From Spirochaetales bacterium (GTDB lineage Bacteria > Spirochaetota > Spirochaetia > Treponematales > UBA12059): DNA of 64,000 nucleotides. Positions within the stretch are counted from its first letter, which is position 1; each line of letters starts with the position of its first letter. Both the position numbers and the translations under genes were made by a program. The notes under the pieces are model-generated. The model did not search any database. It had not been told where the DNA came from and saw only the letters and a list, made by a program, of their open reading frames with translations. The stretch spans positions 1-64,000 of the forward strand of contig JAFGJV010000029.1 of assembly GCA_016928955.1 (NCBI GenBank), given 5' to 3'. Of the stretch, positions 39,923 to 52,394 are shown in pieces.

Positions 39923-40278
39923 GGGGGTGCCCCGGTTTCGACTGGCACGGTCCGGATCGTGGGTCGCAGGTGGAGTGCCGTACTCCTACTCAGCGGCAAA
40001 ACCTTAATTGCCAACGACAACGGCAATTTCGCCCTCGCTGCGTAAGCACCGATGACGACGGGCCCCATGGCGCGCTGTTCCGAGCGCCATGACGGCCTGC
40101 AACCCAACCGGGACTTGCCCCACGCCCAGCCCGCGGGACGTGGGGGACAACCAGCGGGATACGGAAGTGGCCGCGCGGCGGTTCGCCCTCCACTTCCCGA
40201 CAACCTTAAAAGCCGCCTAAACCTGTAGACGCCCTCGTTTCGCGTTTCAGGACGCGGGTTCGACTCCCGCCACCTCCA
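39923..40278 (+). ncRNA. ssrA: tmRNA
   Basis: 5' GGGGGTG...TTCGAC; 3' GCGGGTTCGACTCCCGCCACCTCCA tRNA-like end with G3:U pair; tag ORF 40010-40045 ANDNGNFALAA*. Confidence 0.97.
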
Positions 40279-40609: not shown

Positions 40610-42637
40610 GTGAAGAGAATGCCATCCATTCTCATCCTGGCCGTCGCCGCACTGGCGCTGGTCGGATGCCCTCAGCCAACAGATCCGGTCAAGGACATGA
40701 ATGCCAATCTCGGCACTCTAGCCGTGAATGCCGGACGCCTCTCGCCCGGCTTTGTCACCACCACTACCGTATACGATGTGGGCGTGCGCTACGACCAAGC
40801 CACCATTATCGTTACGGCCACGGCCGAGAGCAGCAAAGCTTCGATAGCCATAAACGGCCAGGCCGGTAGCGAGCTGGAGGTTGCCCTCGATACCGACCGC
40901 ACCATGGTATCAGTAGTCGTAACGGCGGAAGCCGGCAACACCTCTGGATACACGCTTTTCGTGGACAAGGCCGACAGCGAGCTTGTTCCCGTCTCGTTCC
41001 TGGTGGCCGAAAGCGTGGACGGAGCCACGGTAAGCGGTTCCACCCTTACGGCATATGATAGCCTTGGGGCTATCGTAGATACAACGACTGTTACCGGTGG
41101 TTCAGCTGTTGTGAACCTTGAACCGGATGCCTTATATACGTTCGAGGTTCAGCAAGCTGGGTACGCCGCCTCCTCTCTCCAGAACTACTATGTCAGCCCG
41201 CTCGGCGGCAATGATGTCACCATGATCCAGCAGAAGCTGGGCATGATCACGAGGCCCGCGACGGCCCCCCTATTCGATGATATTTCGCTTTCCAGGCTCG
41301 ATGATTTCACCGACGCCGCCACCTTGGTGGCCGGGCAACAGCTGAATACGGCCGGTACCACGTACATCCTCGTGGCGATCCTCTCCGATTCGGCCACGGA
41401 GGCCACGGCTTGGTCCGGTTTCGGCGTGAAGGCTGACTTCGACTACGCCCCAAGCTCCCTCAATGGCATGGACGCCATCATGCTCATGGATCCGTACTTT
41501 GACACTGATGCTGGGAAATACGTCAACCTATATCTTGTCGACCTGAGCGGCGGCGAATACCCGGCCGGTGAGCACGATTTGGTGCTGGTTGCCTACGATG
41601 TGGCCAACAACCGAGCCGAGACCCGCATCCCGGTAATCATGGAAGCCAATGGTTCTTCTGGAGCTGACGTATCCGAAGCGGTATTCTCCGATCTGCTTGC
41701 GGATCTTAGGGCTTACCCGGTCAGCCGCGGCTTCTTCAGCAAGGACCCGGGGAACTCCATCCAGGCCCTGGATCCCTATGAAGGTCATGACGTCTCCTAC
41801 CGCGCCCAGATCAGCTTCAAGCTGACAGACGGCGCTACCACGCCCGCCAACGTGGCCATCCGTGGCTTTGACCTCTACCGCAGAGAAGCTGGCCAGACGA
41901 GCTTCAAAAAGGTCGGCGCCACCATGTATGGCGCTCTTTCCACTGGCTCATCCGGCACCCACTCGATGTTCGACAGCGACAGCGGCCTAGAAGCCGGTGT
42001 TACCTACGAGTACATGATCGTGGCCTACACCGACGCTTCCCATACAGTAAAATCATCGGTGGCCACGTCCAAGGTCATGGCGCCCTTCTCGGCCAGCCTG
42101 GTTGGCCCAGCCAACCGGAGCACCGCCTCGTTCGGCGAGGACGGAAGCGGCTATCCCTATGGCCCGGAGTACTCCTTCTCCATCAGCGACACATCGCTGT
42201 GGAACGCGACCGAGTCCGATTTCTTCTACTTCGCCCTGACGGTCAACGAGAAGGCCGGTCCCTACGCCTACTACGGCAAGTTCCGCTTCAACTTCTCAAC
42301 CTCCAATTTCGAGGCGCTGAACGCGTATACCGGCAGCTGGCTCAATCTTGGATCGAGCGGAAGCATTTTCGACTACACCGGAGGAACCATCACCTTCCTT
42401 TACGGTGGATACGTGGCCTTCATCAACCAGACCAACTTGGTAAACGGCGCGCCCATCCAGTACACCGATGGCGCAGTCTACGAGTGGGACATCATAGGCG
42501 ACCTGTCCGGCGGCCATCCCGCTTGGTTCGAGAAAGCCTACACTGGCGGAATCGCCAAGTCCTACGCCGATGGGTATTCGGAAGGCGCCAATACCTCAAA
42601 TGGCCGCTTCGAAGTCGTGGCCGCGGTCGCCCCGTAA
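40610..42637 (+). CDS. prcA: PrcA-like lipoprotein with an N-terminal cadherin-like beta-sandwich
   Basis: Lipobox LVGC; LSPGF...YDVGV...VTAE cadherin-like segment; LVAYDVANNR; directly upstream of the subtilase; GGAGG RBS. The PrcA call rests on synteny and recalled similarity. Confidence 0.65.
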   Translation: MKRMPSILILAVAALALVGCPQPTDPVKDMNANLGTLAVNAGRLSPGFVTTTTVYDVGVRYDQATIIVTATAESSKASIAINGQAGSELEVALDTDRTMVSVVVTAEAGNTSGYTLFVDKADSELVPVSFLVAESVDGATVSGSTLTAYDSLGAIVDTTTVTGGSAVVNLEPDALYTFEVQQAGYAASSLQNYYVSPLGGNDVTMIQQKLGMITRPATAPLFDDISLSRLDDFTDAATLVAGQQLNTAGTTYILVAILSDSATEATAWSGFGVKADFDYAPSSLNGMDAIMLMDPYFDTDAGKYVNLYLVDLSGGEYPAGEHDLVLVAYDVANNRAETRIPVIMEANGSSGADVSEAVFSDLLADLRAYPVSRGFFSKDPGNSIQALDPYEGHDVSYRAQISFKLTDGATTPANVAIRGFDLYRREAGQTSFKKVGATMYGALSTGSSGTHSMFDSDSGLEAGVTYEYMIVAYTDASHTVKSSVATSKVMAPFSASLVGPANRSTASFGEDGSGYPYGPEYSFSISDTSLWNATESDFFYFALTVNEKAGPYAYYGKFRFNFSTSNFEALNAYTGSWLNLGSSGSIFDYTGGTITFLYGGYVAFINQTNLVNGAPIQYTDGAVYEWDIIGDLSGGHPAWFEKAYTGGIAKSYADGYSEGANTSNGRFEVVAAVAP

Positions 42638-42655
42638 GGAAAAGGAGCAAACAAG

Positions 42656-44896
42656 ATGAAGAAACTGCTAGTAATCCTGGCCGCCGCGCTCCTGCTGGGG
42701 AGCTGCGGTTTGCCCTTCCTGCAGGCCCCCGCCATGGGGCCCGCCGAGGAAGCCGGCCTCAACGTGGTCAAGGTGGCGCCCACCAAGGCCGCAGATCTCG
42801 AGCTCTACAACAACGAGTGGGTCAATTACGGCTACGTCATCGTCAAGACCGATGACGGTTTCGACGTGTCCCGCTTCGAGGCCCTCGGCGCCGAAGTGGC
42901 CGGCTCGTTCACGCTGCGGAACGCTCCTGGCACCTACTGGCGCCTCTACAAAACCACGGGCGTTGCCCAGCTCATCAGCCGCTTGCGCTACCAGCGTGGC
43001 GTGGCCTACGCGGAGCCCGAACTTGTTTCCAAGCGCGTTCTTCCGGTAGTTGAAAATGCAAGCGCCCGGTCCCTGACCAGCGGCGACCTTGCGGACGACC
43101 CGCGCGCCCAGTCCAGCGAATACTCGCTGGCCATCACCCAGGCCCTGGATTCCTACAAAGCCGTTGCCGACGGCGGCAATGGCTACGGGACCAACGAGGT
43201 GTACGTCGGCGTCATCGACACCGGCATCAACATGGCCCATGAAGACTTCTGGTACGACGACGACGAGAACCCGACCACCCAGGACGTGTCCATCGTCGAG
43301 TACGCCAAGAGCGCCTTCATAAAGGCCGCCGACGGCACCATGACCTGGGTCGGCGATGGCGTCGACCACGTGACCGTGCCCAGCGGCGAGAACTGGGATG
43401 ACCAGGCCCACGGCACCCACGTCTCCGGCACCATAGCCGCACGCGGCGACAACGGCGTCGGCGTGGCAGGCGTGGCGTGGAAGAACGTCAAGCTGATCTC
43501 CTACAAGTGCTTCGCCGACGCGGACAGCGGTTCCGGCTCGGACTGGTCCGTGTATTACGGCCTGGCCGACCTAGCCGACTGGAAGGTGGCCAACGGCGTA
43601 ACCCAGGCGACCATACCCGTGAACATGTCGCTCGGCGGCTCTTACGCGGGCTCCTTCGAGCTCGAGATGATCAACTACGCTCTGACCCGGGGCGTCCTTC
43701 CCATCGTGGCTATGGGCAACGACGGCATGCGCATGGGCCAGTTCCCCGCCTCGTACCAGGGCGTCGTGGCCGTAGGCGCCACCAACGGCAAGGACGAGAA
43801 GGTCCACTTCTCCAACACCGGCCACTGGATCAGCGTGTCCGCCCCCGGCTACGATATCATCAGCACGGGCAACGGCAGCGCGTACTGGAACGGCGACCCC
43901 TGGGGCAATGTCGTCCGCCAGACCGAGTACCAGTGGATGAGCGGCACGTCCATGGCCACGCCTTTCGTCACCGGCATGGTCGGGTACCTCCTCTCCTTCG
44001 ACCCGACGCTGACCCCCTACCAGGTCAAGCGCGTGCTCGAGCTGACCGCCGACGATCTCGGCGCGGCCGGCTTTGACGAGGACTTCGGCTACGGCCGCGT
44101 CAACGTCCTGGATGCCGCCACCATGGTGAGGACGGGGACCGGTTTACCCGCAGACAATTCCCACTACCTGAACACCAAGATCGTGGCCACGGTTGAGAAT
44201 ATCAGCGCTGCCTACGACTCGGGGATCGCCGAATTCCAGAAACGCATAGTCGGCGCCACGGTCAGCTTGTACGACTCGCTCGGCCAATTCATCGCCCTGG
44301 GCATGACCAACGGCACTGACGGCTCGGTGGAATTCCGGGGACTCACTGCCGGAACCTACACACTCAAGGTCAACTACGAGGGAGAGCTCCAGTCCCAAAT
44401 CGTGACCCTGGACGGCACCGCTGACCAGACCGCGGCCTTCAGCTACGACAAAACCATACTCTTCGTCTGCACCGTGCCGAACCTGGCTTACAATGCCGGC
44501 GAGGACGCTACCGACACCATGCTCACCCTATACGAGTACAATCCCGCCGGCGGAACGGAGGAAGAAAAGTACATCTACGTCACGGACGTGGATCAGGATT
44601 ACCTGGACACCCTGTCGGCAGAGGTGGTGAGCGGCAAGACCTACTTTGTGGAGATCGCGCCCTACAACCAGCGCGGCGGCAACTACGCCATCCAGATTGG
44701 TTTCTCGCCCATCACCGAGGCCAACGCGGTCGATGGCGCTCGCCTTTCCTCGGACAATGACAGCCATGAGGCCGACGGCACCTACGCGGAGGCTTTAGAT
44801 AAGGGAGAGTTCGATCTCGGCACGCCTTTTGGCGCGAACCTGGTTGGCGGAAGCGCATCAACCGACGTGGACATCTTCATGTTCACTGTTCCCTGA
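42656..44896 (+). CDS. prtP: S8 subtilisin-like lipoprotein protease (dentilisin PrtP-like)
   Basis: Lipobox LGSC; triad VIDTG, HGTHVSG, SGTSMATP; propeptide GYVIVKT...YWRL and DTGINMAHEDF...YAKS recall Treponema PrtP. Confidence 0.82.
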   Translation: MKKLLVILAAALLLGSCGLPFLQAPAMGPAEEAGLNVVKVAPTKAADLELYNNEWVNYGYVIVKTDDGFDVSRFEALGAEVAGSFTLRNAPGTYWRLYKTTGVAQLISRLRYQRGVAYAEPELVSKRVLPVVENASARSLTSGDLADDPRAQSSEYSLAITQALDSYKAVADGGNGYGTNEVYVGVIDTGINMAHEDFWYDDDENPTTQDVSIVEYAKSAFIKAADGTMTWVGDGVDHVTVPSGENWDDQAHGTHVSGTIAARGDNGVGVAGVAWKNVKLISYKCFADADSGSGSDWSVYYGLADLADWKVANGVTQATIPVNMSLGGSYAGSFELEMINYALTRGVLPIVAMGNDGMRMGQFPASYQGVVAVGATNGKDEKVHFSNTGHWISVSAPGYDIISTGNGSAYWNGDPWGNVVRQTEYQWMSGTSMATPFVTGMVGYLLSFDPTLTPYQVKRVLELTADDLGAAGFDEDFGYGRVNVLDAATMVRTGTGLPADNSHYLNTKIVATVENISAAYDSGIAEFQKRIVGATVSLYDSLGQFIALGMTNGTDGSVEFRGLTAGTYTLKVNYEGELQSQIVTLDGTADQTAAFSYDKTILFVCTVPNLAYNAGEDATDTMLTLYEYNPAGGTEEEKYIYVTDVDQDYLDTLSAEVVSGKTYFVEIAPYNQRGGNYAIQIGFSPITEANAVDGARLSSDNDSHEADGTYAEALDKGEFDLGTPFGANLVGGSASTDVDIFMFTVP

Positions 44897-46642: not shown

Positions 46643-46837
46643 ATGAAGATGTTTTCCATTAAGAGCGCGGTCGGCGCGTCCTCCCTCCTGGAACTCGTGG
46701 ACGAGGTCGAGGACGGCTTTATCGTGCGCATCGTGCGGCACCGCGACGACTGGGACGACGTGAGCGAGGAATTCATGACGCGCGAGCTGTTCGACACCTG
46801 CGTGCGCACGGGCTACATAGCCGAGCTCAGCGCCTAG
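46643..46837 (+). CDS. Small hypothetical protein (64 aa)
   Basis: AAGGAGG RBS, host-like codon usage, terminator hairpin at about 46880-46915. Confidence 0.8.
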   Translation: MKMFSIKSAVGASSLLELVDEVEDGFIVRIVRHRDDWDDVSEEFMTRELFDTCVRTGYIAELSA

Positions 46838-46960
46838 CGCCCGTCCACGTATCCGGACACATTAAAATAGTGAGACCCGGCGGCCGCCCTTTTCTGGGGA
46901 CGGCCGCTGTTTTTTAAAAGCCGTGCCGGATGCCGTATCGGTACGTCGCATTCGGCCGGC

Positions 46961-47752
46961 TCAGTAATCCTTGCGCTTCATGATCCGTAACGCCAGAGCT
47001 GCCACGCCTGTCGACCACACGATCTGGTATAGGAAATAGGGCACGCCCATGCGGAAGATAAAGGCCGGTATCCTTTGCGCCAACTCGGGGTTGTCAATTT
47101 TGATAATGGCGCCGTTCGTCGGGAGGACGAACATCAACGGCCCCCGGACTATGGAGGGTAAGCGCGCCCTTACGTACAGGAACGGCACTTCCCCCATATT
47201 CACGACATCGCCGGCCACAAAGGCCGCCAGGCACAGCGCAAGGCCCGACCATCCGTACATGAGGGTGCTTGCAATCAAGCCGACCGACAGATAGGCCAAC
47301 GACTGGGACGTGTAGCCCACCATAAACTCGATCATATTTCGCGCGCTACCGGGCACCTTGAAAATCACATTGAACAACCATACGTTGACAAAGACCAAGG
47401 CAAGAAAACCCAGGAGAGCCGTTAGGGCGACGCGCAGGTGGTTCCAGAACACCGTGCCCTTACGCTCCACATGCGCCAACTCGACGTAGAAATGGCCGCC
47501 GGGCAGTTCCGGCCCCACAAGCCGGACGCCCAGATACATGGAAAACAGCGGCAGGACGATTCTGGCCACCTTTTCAATGGCCGACCAGAACGTGACCGCC
47601 TTCCGGTAGTCGGACATCCGGAGGTTCATGGCCTCGGGCACTCCGGAGCCGAAGAACGAAAGATTGAGGACGACAAGGCCACCGATTATGAAACCAAGGA
47701 AAACCGGATCGTTGACGAGCCGCCGTAGGCGGTAGCTCAAGTTCGGCGTCAT
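46961..47752 (-). CDS. ABC-2 type transporter permease
   Basis: About six hydrophobic segments; start overlaps the ATPase stop. Confidence 0.75.
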   Translation of the reverse strand: MTPNLSYRLRRLVNDPVFLGFIIGGLVVLNLSFFGSGVPEAMNLRMSDYRKAVTFWSAIEKVARIVLPLFSMYLGVRLVGPELPGGHFYVELAHVERKGTVFWNHLRVALTALLGFLALVFVNVWLFNVIFKVPGSARNMIEFMVGYTSQSLAYLSVGLIASTLMYGWSGLALCLAAFVAGDVVNMGEVPFLYVRARLPSIVRGPLMFVLPTNGAIIKIDNPELAQRIPAFIFRMGVPYFLYQIVWSTGVAALALRIMKRKDY

Positions 47753-48603
47753 GGCCGCACCCCCCTCTCACCCAGTCCGGCATGGTACCAGTCCTCAAGA
47801 TCCGCCGTCGCATAATCGACGTCTGCCAGCCTGTAAGCCCCATCGAGCCTGACCTCGGGTCCGCCCAGCTTCAGGCACTCCAATTTCTCAGTTTCTGAAC
47901 CGCCGCGTCGCTCCAGCGTCACGGTGGCGTTTCGGCTCGCGCGCTTGTAGTCGCCCACGACTATCTCATTGGATACGACCCCGTCCTTGAGCAGTCCCGC
48001 TTTGTGGCATACGCGCTCCAGATCCGTAAGGATGTGGGAGGTCATAAGCACGGCACTGCCGGCTTCCAGTTTGGCCTTGACCATATCCAGGGCTACCCTG
48101 CGCGCGACCGGGTCCAGGTCGGACGTGGGTTCATCCAGTATGATCAGTTCCGGGCTGCCGAGAAAGGCCTGGATCAATCCGGCCTTCTTCCTCATCCCCT
48201 TGGAAAACGTCGATATGCGCGCCTTCAGGGCGCCCTCGATTCCAAGTTCTCCGGCCATGCGCGTGTATTCGGTTTTGGCCGCTCCTGCAGCCAAGCCTTT
48301 CAGTTCGGCCATGGCGTCCAGGTACTCACTGAGCGCCAGGTTCCTTGGCGGGGCCAGCACCTCGGGCAGGTAGGAAAGTCCCCGCCGTTTCTTGAGCTGG
48401 CCCAGATGCATGCCGGCAAAGCGCACGCTGCCGGAATCCACAGTGATTGATCCGATAATGGCCTTGATGGTGGTGGACTTGCCCGCCCCATTGGGACCGA
48501 TGAGCGCATACGCCTTGGCCGGCCCTATTTCAAGCGACAAGCCTTTGAGCACGGGCGATCTTCGGTCATAGGCCTTCCTGAGCGTGTCGATGACCAGGCT
48601 CAT
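47749..48603 (-). CDS. ABC transporter ATP-binding protein (export/resistance type)
   Basis: GPNGAGKST, FSKGMRKK, LILDEPTSDLDP, TSHIL. Confidence 0.95.
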   Translation of the reverse strand: MSLVIDTLRKAYDRRSPVLKGLSLEIGPAKAYALIGPNGAGKSTTIKAIIGSITVDSGSVRFAGMHLGQLKKRRGLSYLPEVLAPPRNLALSEYLDAMAELKGLAAGAAKTEYTRMAGELGIEGALKARISTFSKGMRKKAGLIQAFLGSPELIILDEPTSDLDPVARRVALDMVKAKLEAGSAVLMTSHILTDLERVCHKAGLLKDGVVSNEIVVGDYKRASRNATVTLERRGGSETEKLECLKLGGPEVRLDGAYRLADVDYATADLEDWYHAGLGERGVRP

Positions 48604-49772
48604 GGATTTTGCGCCTCAAGCAGGCCGGGAACATCTTCAAGCTTGCAGGGCGGCAGGATCTCCGGAGGCGAGTTTAATGCCGTGAACATGCGCCGGCCCT
48701 CATTCTCCACAATAAGCATGGGCTGAATGATGAGGCAGGTGTTGGTAAAATCCGCTTCAGGGTCATAATACAGCGGATACGCTCTCTCCAGCGCCATAGC
48801 CCCAGTACTCAAGCCGCTTGGCGCGCAGTCGGCCATGCCGAGGGGCTTGAATTCCGGCGGCGGCATCGAGCCGACCCTGGGGGTATGCTGGTACTCCGGG
48901 AAGTGCCGGCCTTCGTCGGCGCGCAAAGCATTGACTTTTCCATAAAACAAGCTTAGGGGATCATCGTCGGCGGGGCCACGCTCTTTACGAAATTCCTCCA
49001 GCTCCGGACTCGTGAGTATCCTCCCGTCATTGAGAGAGATAGGCGACATCCAGTCCACGTATACGCCTGGTATCCCCATGTCCGCGTCCACGACTCGTTT
49101 CTCGGCGTCGGTCTCGGGGTCAAATGCTATACCGAACATGAAGCCATAGAGCAGACGGCCACCAGGATAGTCCCCCTGATGGAACCTACCCTCAGGCAAG
49201 ACCAAGTCGCCCATAGCAGGATCTACGAATGTCTGTATGGTGTACATGTCAAGGTCGTTCCTAACATACCTGAACCGTATCGAACCAATGGGATAGTCTT
49301 CCGTAACTCCATCTATAAAGCTTACCCTGATGCTGTCTGCCACCAAACCGTCATAAGTTGGATCCAGTTCAAAGCTATAGGTGAGAACCCTGTACACCAA
49401 ACCGCTTGTATCATTTGGGATCCAATTGGTCAGAGCGTTGGCGGCGATATCGTCAGCGTAATCTCCATCACGCTCAAATGCCGTGCGGGTCAGGGGAATG
49501 GTCCTTCTGCTTGACGATTCAACGAACTCGGCCGCGTTTATGTTCGAGTACTGGGAAAATTCTGTGATGCCGGGCGAGTCGAGCAGATAGAGAGAAATTT
49601 CTTCGTTTGAGGGAGTTGCCCCGGACCAATACGTGCCGACATGCCTGAAAAAAGCCTGCCTGGCGTGGCCCAGCTCGGTACGCGCGGCCTCCCCGCCACG
49701 GGAGGTGAAAACCAGAATGATGGCTGCCACTAAAACGATCACAGCTAGCAAGGAAAGCGCTAAACGTTTCAT
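48600..49772 (-). CDS. Hypothetical N-terminally anchored extracytoplasmic protein (390 aa)
   Basis: MKRLALSLLAVIVLVAAIILVF anchor; GGAGGG RBS; stop overlaps the ATPase start. Confidence 0.75.
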   Translation of the reverse strand: MKRLALSLLAVIVLVAAIILVFTSRGGEAARTELGHARQAFFRHVGTYWSGATPSNEEISLYLLDSPGITEFSQYSNINAAEFVESSSRRTIPLTRTAFERDGDYADDIAANALTNWIPNDTSGLVYRVLTYSFELDPTYDGLVADSIRVSFIDGVTEDYPIGSIRFRYVRNDLDMYTIQTFVDPAMGDLVLPEGRFHQGDYPGGRLLYGFMFGIAFDPETDAEKRVVDADMGIPGVYVDWMSPISLNDGRILTSPELEEFRKERGPADDDPLSLFYGKVNALRADEGRHFPEYQHTPRVGSMPPPEFKPLGMADCAPSGLSTGAMALERAYPLYYDPEADFTNTCLIIQPMLIVENEGRRMFTALNSPPEILPPCKLEDVPGLLEAQNP

Positions 49773-49955: not shown

Positions 49956-50423
49956 TCAGCTTCTGGTTATCCTTACATATTTTCCCCGAGTTCCAGATGC
50001 CGAACCGTTCTCGGTTTTAATCACCTTGGAAGATCCATCAGGAAATCTCTTCCAGGTTATCTTTATCACAGATCCGCTCCTGGTAGTCGAGCCCCAACGG
50101 ATATATCCACATTTTCCATTGCTAAAGGTAGCACTGACCGTAAGAGACTTTGTCACACTGCCTTCGCTCCTTAATTCTAAGCCTATCTCTCCAGCAATAA
50201 AACTAGCGCTTATGCTACCCGTCACGCTCAAAGTGGCCGTTCTTTCTTCTGTTTCCGAATATGTAACGCTCGTGCCGGGCAAAGTTTCAATATAGGCCTG
50301 ACCGCATTGCATGTTCGGACCATTACTATAGGATTTTGTTACCGCAGTGTCTGTCTCATATGCACCGGCCAGTCCTACAAAAAGCCCGACGATCAGCAGG
50401 GCCATTAAGCACTTTTTCCGCAT
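49956..50423 (-). CDS. Small secreted Ser/Thr-rich beta protein A (155 aa)
   Basis: AGGAGG RBS; Sec signal ending AGA; alternating amphipathic segment; two Cys in the mature part. Confidence 0.8.
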   Translation of the reverse strand: MRKKCLMALLIVGLFVGLAGAYETDTAVTKSYSNGPNMQCGQAYIETLPGTSVTYSETEERTATLSVTGSISASFIAGEIGLELRSEGSVTKSLTVSATFSNGKCGYIRWGSTTRSGSVIKITWKRFPDGSSKVIKTENGSASGTRGKYVRITRS

Positions 50424-50443
50424 ACTAAACCTCCTGGTTTGTT

Positions 50444-50914
50444 TCATTCAGTTTCTATAAAGACACCTTCGGTAGCCTCTATATCGCTCTGGGAAATGAC
50501 TGTATGTCTAACTGATCCATTTGGGTATCGTTTCCATTGTACATGCGTTACGACCAGTTGCACCACGCGGACGCCAGCCGTGACCCTTGCGGTTATGATG
50601 TTGGGATCATCAAAACTCAAGCGGATGGCGGATGAATACTCGCTCACTGTATTCACGGTAGTCTCCGGGGCTATGAGCTCATTCAGGAAAAACGGGACGG
50701 GGCCTCGCACTCTAAAATAAGCCGTTCTTTTGAAGGGGATAAGCACGGGTATCGGCGTCTGCTGATCCTTGTTTATGGTTTTGCTGATAAGAACCTGCCG
50801 ATACCGCTCGATCGAGTAGTCGTAGCCCTCATCGACTTCCAGCGACACGGCCTTGGGGAGGGCAAGGAACATGAACGCGCAGCACAGCGTATACATAAAT
50901 CGTTTTTCTTTCAT
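50444..50914 (-). CDS. Small secreted beta protein B (156 aa), apparent paralogue of A
   Basis: Sec-like signal ending AVS; shares RTA...V.G and WKR[FY]P[DN]GS with A. Confidence 0.78.
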   Translation of the reverse strand: MKEKRFMYTLCCAFMFLALPKAVSLEVDEGYDYSIERYRQVLISKTINKDQQTPIPVLIPFKRTAYFRVRGPVPFFLNELIAPETTVNTVSEYSSAIRLSFDDPNIITARVTAGVRVVQLVVTHVQWKRYPNGSVRHTVISQSDIEATEGVFIETE

Positions 50915-51083: not shown

Positions 51084-52394
51084 ATGAGCGACGCGAAAGG
51101 CAGCTTCAAGCCATACCTTGGCTTGACCTTCCTCATCGGCTTTGGGTTCTTCACCATGGGCCTCATGGACATACTGTACGACAGCTATGTGCCCATCTTC
51201 CTGGGCTCGTACATCAAGGCCAACTGGCTGATCGGGGCCATCATGACCCTGGACAACGTGCTGGCCGTGTTCCTGATACCTTTCGTGTCGCTGTGGTCGG
51301 ACAACGCGCGGACCAAAATAGGCAGGCGCATGCCCTTCATCATCGTGCTCCTGCCGCTGTCGGCGGTGACCTTCTCCCTGATACCCTACGCGGCGCGCGA
51401 GTCGCTGGTGTCGCTCATACTGCTGGTGGGCGGGCTCAACCTGTTCAAGCAGTCGGTGCGCGGCCCCGTGGTCGCCCTGATGCCGGACACCATACCGGGC
51501 GAATTCCGCTCGGAGGCCAACGGCGTGATCAATACCATGGGCGCGCTCGGCGCTATCATCAGCACGGTGGGCTTGGCCAGGCTCATGGGCGTGGATGTGG
51601 TCCTGCCCTTCCTGGGGCGCACCAAGGACGCCCTGCCCTTCCCCATAGCCGGCCTGTGCGTGGTCCTGGCCACGCTCCTGGTATTCTTCTTCGTGCGCGA
51701 GCGCAACCGCGACGCGGCGGCCAAGGAGGAGCGCGTGCCCCTGGTGGCGTCGCTCAAGGCCATAGCGGGCGAGAAGGACAAGAGTGCGCTGTGGATACTC
51801 ATAGCCCTGTTCTTCTGGTTCTGGGGCTACCAGGGCATCCTGCCCTTCATAGCCAAGTTCAGCGTGGAGGTGCTGGGTACGAGCAACGCCAACGCCACCC
51901 TGCCCGCCTCGGCGGTGGCCATAGCCCAGCTGCTCTTTGCCATTCCGTCCGGCTACGTTGCGCACCGCATAGGCCGCAAGCGCGCGCTCCGGATATCGCT
52001 TCTGGCGCTGGTGGTCATCCTGCTGGTGGGCGGGTACCTGGCCAGCCCCCTGGCCGAGGCGCTGGGCTCGGGCGCCCGCTTCTACGCGCTCATGGGCATC
52101 ATGTTCCTGTACGGCATCTTCTGGATCACCATCATTACCAACTCGTTCCCCATGCTGTGGCAGATGGCGTCCTTCGGTACCATAGGCGTGTACACGGGCC
52201 TCTATTACACCTTCAGCCAGGCCGCGGCCATTACCGCGCCGTGGCTGACCGGCGCGCTGATAGATATCGTGGGCTACCCGGGCATCTTCGTGTTTGCCGC
52301 CCTGTGCATGGGCGTGGCCATGGCCGTGATGTCCCTGGTGCGCAAGGGCGAGCCGCACGACGATCCCAAGGGGCTGGAGGCGAGCGTCGCATGA
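51084..52394 (+). CDS. MFS transporter (sucrose/maltose-permease-like)
   Basis: About 12 TMs; WSDNARTKIGRRMPF, ALMPDTIP...RSEANG. Confidence 0.88.
   Translation: MSDAKGSFKPYLGLTFLIGFGFFTMGLMDILYDSYVPIFLGSYIKANWLIGAIMTLDNVLAVFLIPFVSLWSDNARTKIGRRMPFIIVLLPLSAVTFSLIPYAARESLVSLILLVGGLNLFKQSVRGPVVALMPDTIPGEFRSEANGVINTMGALGAIISTVGLARLMGVDVVLPFLGRTKDALPFPIAGLCVVLATLLVFFFVRERNRDAAAKEERVPLVASLKAIAGEKDKSALWILIALFFWFWGYQGILPFIAKFSVEVLGTSNANATLPASAVAIAQLLFAIPSGYVAHRIGRKRALRISLLALVVILLVGGYLASPLAEALGSGARFYALMGIMFLYGIFWITIITNSFPMLWQMASFGTIGVYTGLYYTFSQAAAITAPWLTGALIDIVGYPGIFVFAALCMGVAMAVMSLVRKGEPHDDPKGLEASVA

Follow-up and report, generated by a model that had tools for sequence, protein, structure and literature searches.

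A secreted paralogue pair with unequal hairpins at the head of a repeated ABC cassette in a spirochaete: a candidate aerolysin-type module

Two adjacent genes, A and B, on the minus strand of a 64,000-nt stretch from a Spirochaetales bacterium (the window) encode small paralogues, of which A carries an alternating polar/non-polar hairpin where B carries a segment broken by prolines. They open a five-gene operon layout in the order B-A-C-ATPase-permease, which is foreign in composition and whose last three genes form a triad present in three copies in the genome. We tentatively read the five genes as one acquired bacteriocin-like cassette in which A would be a minimal pore former, C and the ABC pair would give protection and B would be an accessory, a reading that we regard as quite possible though somewhat short of probable.

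The paralogue pair and its asymmetric segment

An earlier note on this DNA had described a divergent paralogue pair, and we recovered both open reading frames where it had placed them, both on the minus strand, with these features:

50444..50914, minus strand: gene B, 156 aa, signal-peptide-like N-terminus, divergent paralogue of A
49956..50423, minus strand: gene A, 155 aa from its likely start; the reading frame opens at 50447
50430..50435, minus strand: AGGAGG ribosome-binding site of A, 6 nt before the start at 50423
50145..50234, minus strand: alternating polar/non-polar hairpin of A, mature residues 43–72, putative membrane-insertion loop
50666..50704, minus strand: GPVPFFLNELIAP segment of B; in the alignment it lies opposite the A hairpin (50145-50234), at the first strand and the turn

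With the cleavage sites of that note, judged by eye, the mature chains again come to 134 (A) and 132 (B) residues. The start of A had to be moved: A had been opened at 50447, and the likelier start is 50423, with the AGGAGG motif just upstream; the resulting 155-aa form is also the one present in the database. At the level of sequence, A and B are confirmed as distant, predicted secreted paralogues of 22–24% identity, their similarity being beyond chance yet weak. BLASTP aligns them with 23/94 residues identical (E 5e-5), the global alignment score beats all of 3000 shuffles (z 5.4), the local score is equalled by one in 3000, and a profile comparison, which had been proposed as a check, gives E 2.8e-4 with a probability of only 41%. 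The four motif pairs reported as colinear all lie in register in the global alignment, the first of them (YETD../LEVD..) having just two residues in common and carrying little weight. The repeats at the locus are short two-copy families; the copies of one of them, 23 nt long with a spacing of 485, fall on the RTA motif in A and in B. A promoter and terminator scan of the locus stayed at chance level.

In four of four public runs, belonging to three studies, contigs reproduce parts of A, of B or of both letter for letter, and two of these contigs span the A-B junction. This agreement means that the prolines of B are genuine and the DNA is no assembly artefact. Public runs with this stretch are labelled sludge, digester, wastewater, sediment, freshwater or landfill; the two RNA-labelled runs consist of contigs whose cover is low and flat across the cassette and its flanks, and possibly represent DNA. 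From its types of protein we take the host to be a free-living spirochaete.

A has a signal-peptide-like N-terminus and a mature chain with 30% Ser+Thr, ranking first for these residues among the genome's 203 signal-peptide-like reading frames, and at about 130 mature residues it comprises no receptor-binding domain or pro-peptide. Its hairpin and flanking strands take up roughly 50 residues, with boundaries set by eye, and an insertion loop with alternating polar and non-polar residues is present by an ad hoc score. The alternating hairpin of A and the broken segment of B align to each other, as the earlier note had it. In the three A-type proteins (A and two relatives, A2 and P0009, introduced below) the hairpin span holds 0–1 Pro and 39% (A), 33% (A2) or 30% (P0009) Ser+Thr, against 7 Pro and 16% in the matching span of B; the hairpin score over the aligned region is 6.47–8.11 in the A-type proteins versus 2.17 in B, this score being ad hoc and devised once the sequences had been seen. 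Shuffling equalled the best hairpin in 1/150 trials for A, 2/150 for P0009 and 10/150 for A2, and in 71/150 for B, in which the sequence test found no alternating, Ser/Thr-rich insertion loop. The earlier suggestion that B is a non-inserting partner of A fits the proline and Ser+Thr content of that span as regards insertion, and what makes B a putative partner is adjacency and paralogy. AlphaFold2 models B alone at pLDDT 36.7, and models of the A:B complex scored 0.00 in both runs, with the partner fold uncertain and the controls unfolded.

When 25,344 six-frame reading frames are ranked by a profile built from A, A2 and P0009, B comes second to A itself (12 bits, E 0.22), and its score exceeds 2000 of 2000 shuffles. 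Pairwise, the score of P0009 against B is equalled by 3/2000 shuffles, and that of A2 against B, at 238/2000, is not significant. The ranking, the shuffles and the profile-profile E value given above together argue that B is a derived member of the A family. Homologue searches returned only A itself for A (1 of 64 candidates) and, for B, one variant with one residue different (1 of 14); a 534-aa repeat protein from a search of 1.84 billion sequences was rejected as an A homologue because its match reflects repeats and composition, the other match there being A. Genome contigs gave no relative of A (325 stretches) or of C (58 stretches), viral contigs (25 stretches) and plasmids likewise gave none, and B matched no family model.

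Relation of A to aerolysin-type proteins

That A is a minimal aerolysin-type module, as the earlier note proposed, has moderate support from the Atlas comparison, a profile match to Clostridium perfringens enterotoxin (CPE) and the hairpin, although A reaches no family cut-off. From its sequence and a predicted model we consider an aerolysin-type fold likely, yet we do not class A as a member of the family. The Atlas model of A (pTM 0.55, pLDDT 0.68) resembles aerolysin-type clusters at TM 0.56–0.63 over 108–120 residues, the comparison partners being predicted models rather than solved structures. The structural matches listed for A span TM 0.49–0.63, all beneath the naming bar; PF01117 or PF03318 occurs in the clusters of 5 of the 10 listed, and a sixth is named natterin. 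The clusters nearest A are commonest in Bacillota and Actinomycetota. Atlas features of B are weak, 0.84 at best, and B is without an Atlas model.

A profile built from the three A-type proteins found four PDB sequences at E ≤ 10, the best being CPE residues 79–159 at E 0.17, which is not significant alone. The alignment runs in register from the hairpin through the DGS motif and lays the A hairpin on CPE residues 79–106. The other matches are a designed protein and two chains of Sarol-1, which we take to be aerolysin-type. According to the available text of the respective sources, CPE residues 81–106 are the proposed membrane-spanning region (PMC11774686) and CPE is counted in the aerolysin family (PMC9558359). 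The accessible part of another study puts Thr+Ser in the loop and flanking strands across the family at 23–44% (PMC4823867; see also PMC6572795), a range within which A (39%), A2 (33%) and P0009 (30%) all fall. The same text gives 75 ± 8 residues for the loop plus pre-insertion strands in solved members (PMC4823867), of which the span of ~50 residues in A, delimited by eye and with no structure, falls short.

A second likeness concerns two domains of unknown function. The DUF6060 (PF19535) label is carried by 13% of the members of a 158-aa Atlas cluster that has a feature score of 0.93 to A, with 183 features in common, and that reaches rank 19 (0.81) for B; a DUF6426 (PF19990) cluster resembles A at TM 0.50. 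Neither Pfam model matches, the DUF6060 cut-off of 26.5 bits being missed, and a DUF6060 search of 400 genomes gave nothing above cut-off.

Direct family searches were negative throughout. Pfam gave A no family at E ≤ 1 or at E ≤ 10; PF01117, PF03318 and PF03505 gave no match to A above cut-off; PF03505 and PF03318 found no candidate in its own genome; and Pfam, NCBIfam and PHROG, run over the cassette proteins, assigned neither A nor B to a family above cut-off. Nothing significant came from searching PDB sequences with A, B, P0009, the three-way profile or a profile of C. AlphaFold2 modelled A, with 5 sequences, at pLDDT 34.5, too poor a model to inform a Foldseek search (0 matches at E ≤ 0.001) or a VIA-align search (no Z ≥ 5 in 48,161 chains). 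These negative searches and uninformative models of A and B would also be expected if the two proteins had another fold, resembled aerolysins through Ser/Thr-rich strands and accompanied an ordinary ABC system as small secreted proteins, and beta strands rich in Ser/Thr are a possible source of bias for profile as well as model matches. Because the Atlas model and the sequence profile point to the same superfamily, with the hairpin in register, we think this quite improbable.

A further alternative sees A, with B as minor subunit, as a non-lytic filament or coat, on the surface or in the periplasm, held together by beta-strand pairing and with C and the ABC pair as its anchor and assembly machine. 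Pilus and amyloid operons combine a small Sec-exported all-beta subunit, a minor paralogue and a membrane-anchored protein, which the A/B/C layout resembles, and the missing receptor domain and a hairpin span shorter than in toxins would suit such a subunit. The best structural and sequence neighbours of A, however, are pore formers and not pilins, it is precisely in the amphipathic hairpin that A and B differ, and rarity and decay suit a conflict locus better, so that a structural role seems unlikely.

The cassette, its copies and its origin

The three genes that follow A in the cassette, which the earlier note had passed over, are these:

48600..49772, minus strand: gene C, 390-aa orphan with one N-terminal hydrophobic anchor (residues 4–22)
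47749..48603, minus strand: ABC ATPase, 284 aa, DrrA/GldA/lantibiotic-protection-like, below every cut-off shown
46961..47752, minus strand: inferred ABC permease, 263 aa, multi-spanning membrane protein

The start of the ATPase overlaps the stop of C, and that of the permease the stop of the ATPase. C has no match in Pfam, NCBIfam, PHROG or PDB sequences. The ATPase and permease reach the cut-off of no curated immunity family: the ATPase scores 112.5 bits against TIGR03740 (cut-off 309.75), a permease paralogue matches a lantibiotic-immunity permease weakly (E 0.027, far under the cut-off), and NF047572 gives a paralogue 14.4 bits where 75 are needed. Just downstream of the permease lies a G+C-rich hairpin without a T tail (46881-46908, minus strand), a possible terminator, and the cassette is bounded by a 64-aa gene (46643-46837) and an MFS gene (51087-52394).

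GC3 is 0.46 in A, 0.58 in B and 0.63, 0.74 and 0.77 in the remaining three cassette genes, and 0.84–0.90 in four flanking genes. C was not found in 41 of 41 other genomes of the family, and a single weak match of its profile in 400 genomes of the order was discarded because it falls within a 745-aa gene that is unrelated. In 400 genomes of the phylum a joint profile of A, A2 and B found nothing, the A-type profile gave weak matches in 2 of 41 family genomes, both with internal stops, and two weak matches in 400 genomes of the class were set aside because they lie over unrelated genes. The flanking MFS gene is present in 16 of 20 relatives, and in 2 of 7 of the relatives' loci the two flanking genes lie ~1.4 kb apart around another gene. 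Low GC3, the lack of C in the relatives searched and the conserved flanks together argue that the cassette is, on this comparative evidence, a horizontally acquired element. In 5 of the 7 loci a gene precedes the MFS gene that, from its motif, we take to be galactokinase-like; as this genome has only a 31% match elsewhere, the cassette may have replaced it.

The triad recurs at two other places in the genome:

L002:1064-4236 (G000:C51), minus strand: further C-ATPase-permease cassette
L001:84-2823 (G000:C43): further C-ATPase-permease cassette

Identity among the copies is 30–38% for C, 52–57% for the ATPase and 37–42% for the permease. When metagenomes were scanned with the alignment of C, two of the 123 candidate stretches were confirmed, L007 and L008. 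The first, from a close strain, joins genome contigs C51 and C43 head to tail, which places cassettes 2 and 3 in tandem, with a 223-aa lipoprotein-like orphan between them. The third cassette has this lipoprotein-like gene, and no A-type gene, directly in front, so C and the ABC pair need not serve A. That observation also bears on the idea that A is a domesticated pore in the producer's outer membrane, linked through C to the ABC pair and plugged or gated by B. Type I secretion systems join an ABC pair to a single-anchor extracytoplasmic protein and a barrel former, a layout that the cassette parallels, and C is constant in three of three cassettes. Against this stand the third cassette and the distribution of the nearest Atlas clusters, whose commonest phyla, Bacillota and Actinomycetota, are mostly without an outer membrane, and we hold a domesticated pore to be very unlikely.

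The second cassette is preceded by an A-type gene in a different state in each strain. In L008 this gene, A2 (L008:124-574), stands directly before the second C and encodes a 130-aa Ser/Thr-rich mature chain that is identical to A at 26/87 positions (E 2e-6; z 6.3, reached by 0/2000 shuffles); a long T run just past the start codon throws its start out of frame. Of the A-type gene before the second C, the present genome retains just a signal-peptide stub, and codon 355 of the 420 in the second C is an in-frame stop. An alignment search gave four matches among 476 candidates: A, the B variant, P0008 and P0009. P0008 is nearly identical to A2, with an N-terminus that implies another out-of-frame state, and P0009 is 53% identical to A2 and has an intact signal peptide. 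The frame states of A2 and P0008 could reflect an assembly error or on/off switching by slipped strands.

Before A2 we saw no B, but L008 covers only 123 nt of that stretch; the genome leaves ~310 nt between the A-type stub and the next upstream gene, too little for a B. An A-type gene without a B in view is inactive wherever the context could be read (deleted here, out of frame in L008), which can be a hint that B protects or can reflect decay of the whole second cassette. The first of these would make A and B an obligate pair, with B a dedicated dominant-negative immunity protein or chaperone that co-oligomerises with A. A and B are adjacent secreted paralogues of equal size, the inactivity here, in L008 and by inference in P0008 is what one would expect if A-type genes lacking a B were costly, and a precedent is reported in the accessible text on BmALP3, a non-pore-forming paralogue that inhibits BmALP1 (PMC7995273). 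Yet the space before the stub is too short for a B, P0009 has its signal peptide intact, a co-secreted inhibitor would shield the targets too, and the second C is also broken here, so that the second cassette may simply be decaying; an obligate pair therefore strikes us as unlikely. Because C, ATPase and permease occur in all three cassettes and no B was seen before A2, B looks accessory rather than a general immunity or receptor part of the A family.

Proposed mechanism and related systems

In the bacteriocin-like reading that we favour, A would be exported by Sec and would consist of hardly anything beyond the pore-forming core of an aerolysin/CPE-type toxin. It would oligomerise on a target membrane, most likely that of a competing microbe, where its Ser/Thr-rich amphipathic hairpins may insert as a short beta-barrel. 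C and the ABC pair would form the constant membrane module, whose task is most likely to protect the producer or to rid its envelope of A. B would be a later duplicate that lost the hairpin and kept the strands around the KR-x-x-x-GS motif; since it keeps the strands but not the hairpin, it could join or cap A oligomers as a platform or damp them, serving as an accessory targeting or damping subunit. We lean slightly towards pore formation by A; an antibacterial role with C and the ABC pair as protection, and a physical contact between A and B, each seem plausible without quite reaching the probable. A conflict locus fits because the cassette is rare, repeated and decaying and its ATPase is nearest to drug-efflux and lantibiotic-protection types. 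That the whole amounts to an undescribed microbial pore-forming weapon, a ~130-residue module with an ABC cassette, turned off by a deletion or a slippery tract in some strains and adjusted by a hairpin-dead paralogue that assembles together with it, is a speculation we think doubtful.

Among known systems, A shares the alternating hairpin and Ser/Thr-rich flanks with the aerolysin/ETX-MTX2 module (nearest the CPE N-domain 2xh6, lysenin and epsilon toxin). It differs in its ~130-aa size, in lacking a receptor domain and a Pfam match, in the span of ~50 versus 75 ± 8 residues given in the available text, and in being encoded beside an anchored protein and an ABC pair. DUF6060 (PF19535) and DUF6426 (PF19990) are like A by the Atlas and unlike it by Pfam model. 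The CDCL-L/CDCL-S proteins of Bacteroidota, with an immunity lipoprotein, are an antibacterial paralogous pair of platform and barrel former (PMC11169675), so that a platform B would parallel CDCL-L; they differ from A and B in fold and size, and no ABC pair is reported in the accessible text. A damping B would instead parallel BmALP3 of the toad, where an aerolysin-family protein, BmALP1, has a non-pore-forming paralogue as negative regulator; as far as the available text describes them, these proteins are eukaryotic, multi-domain and regulated by disulfide exchange, whereas mature B has no cysteine (PMC7995273). The nearest functional parallel is TMcin, an ABC-linked bacteriocin locus with a small beta-barrel pore former and ABC subunits, which in the accessible portion has a helix-anchored peptide and a protease gene (PMC12328743); no sequence relation to it was seen. 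The word aerolysin did not turn up in a term search of the accessible text of the ABP review (PMC13460014). Both the module type and paralogues that are non-lytic are known already. In the literature searched, mostly open papers without their supplements, we met neither a description of the cassette type nor a case in which a module of ~130 residues goes together with an orphan anchored protein and an ABC pair.

If the reading is correct, few aerolysin-type pore formers would be as small as A, and it would be the first one we could find linked to an ABC-type protection module. Szczesny et al. suggest, in the available text, that the functional unit may be just the loop plus five strands (PMC3110756); pore formation by A would put this directly to the test and provide a very small natural scaffold for barrel-assembly studies. 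Aerolysin-type proteins are described mainly as acting against eukaryotic cells in the accessible part of a review (PMC9558359), and an antibacterial role would extend them to microbial competition, as for CDC-like toxins. Comparing A with B would, as a natural experiment, bear on which segment renders the fold lytic. Since the Atlas suggests that many unnamed small proteins of Bacillota and Actinomycetota resemble A, the cassette type may reach far beyond this lineage.

Two further loci deserve mention. After a tmRNA gene at 39923-40278, two large lipoprotein-like genes occupy 40610-44896, the second of which, by its motifs, is presumably a subtilisin-type protease; such a secreted enzyme, close to a candidate pore former, could serve as its activator. 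Elsewhere in the genome, within a low-GC island, a 90-aa low-GC reading frame (G000:C47:16652-16981, plus strand) with a signal-peptide-like start and eight cysteines is a candidate small secreted peptide.
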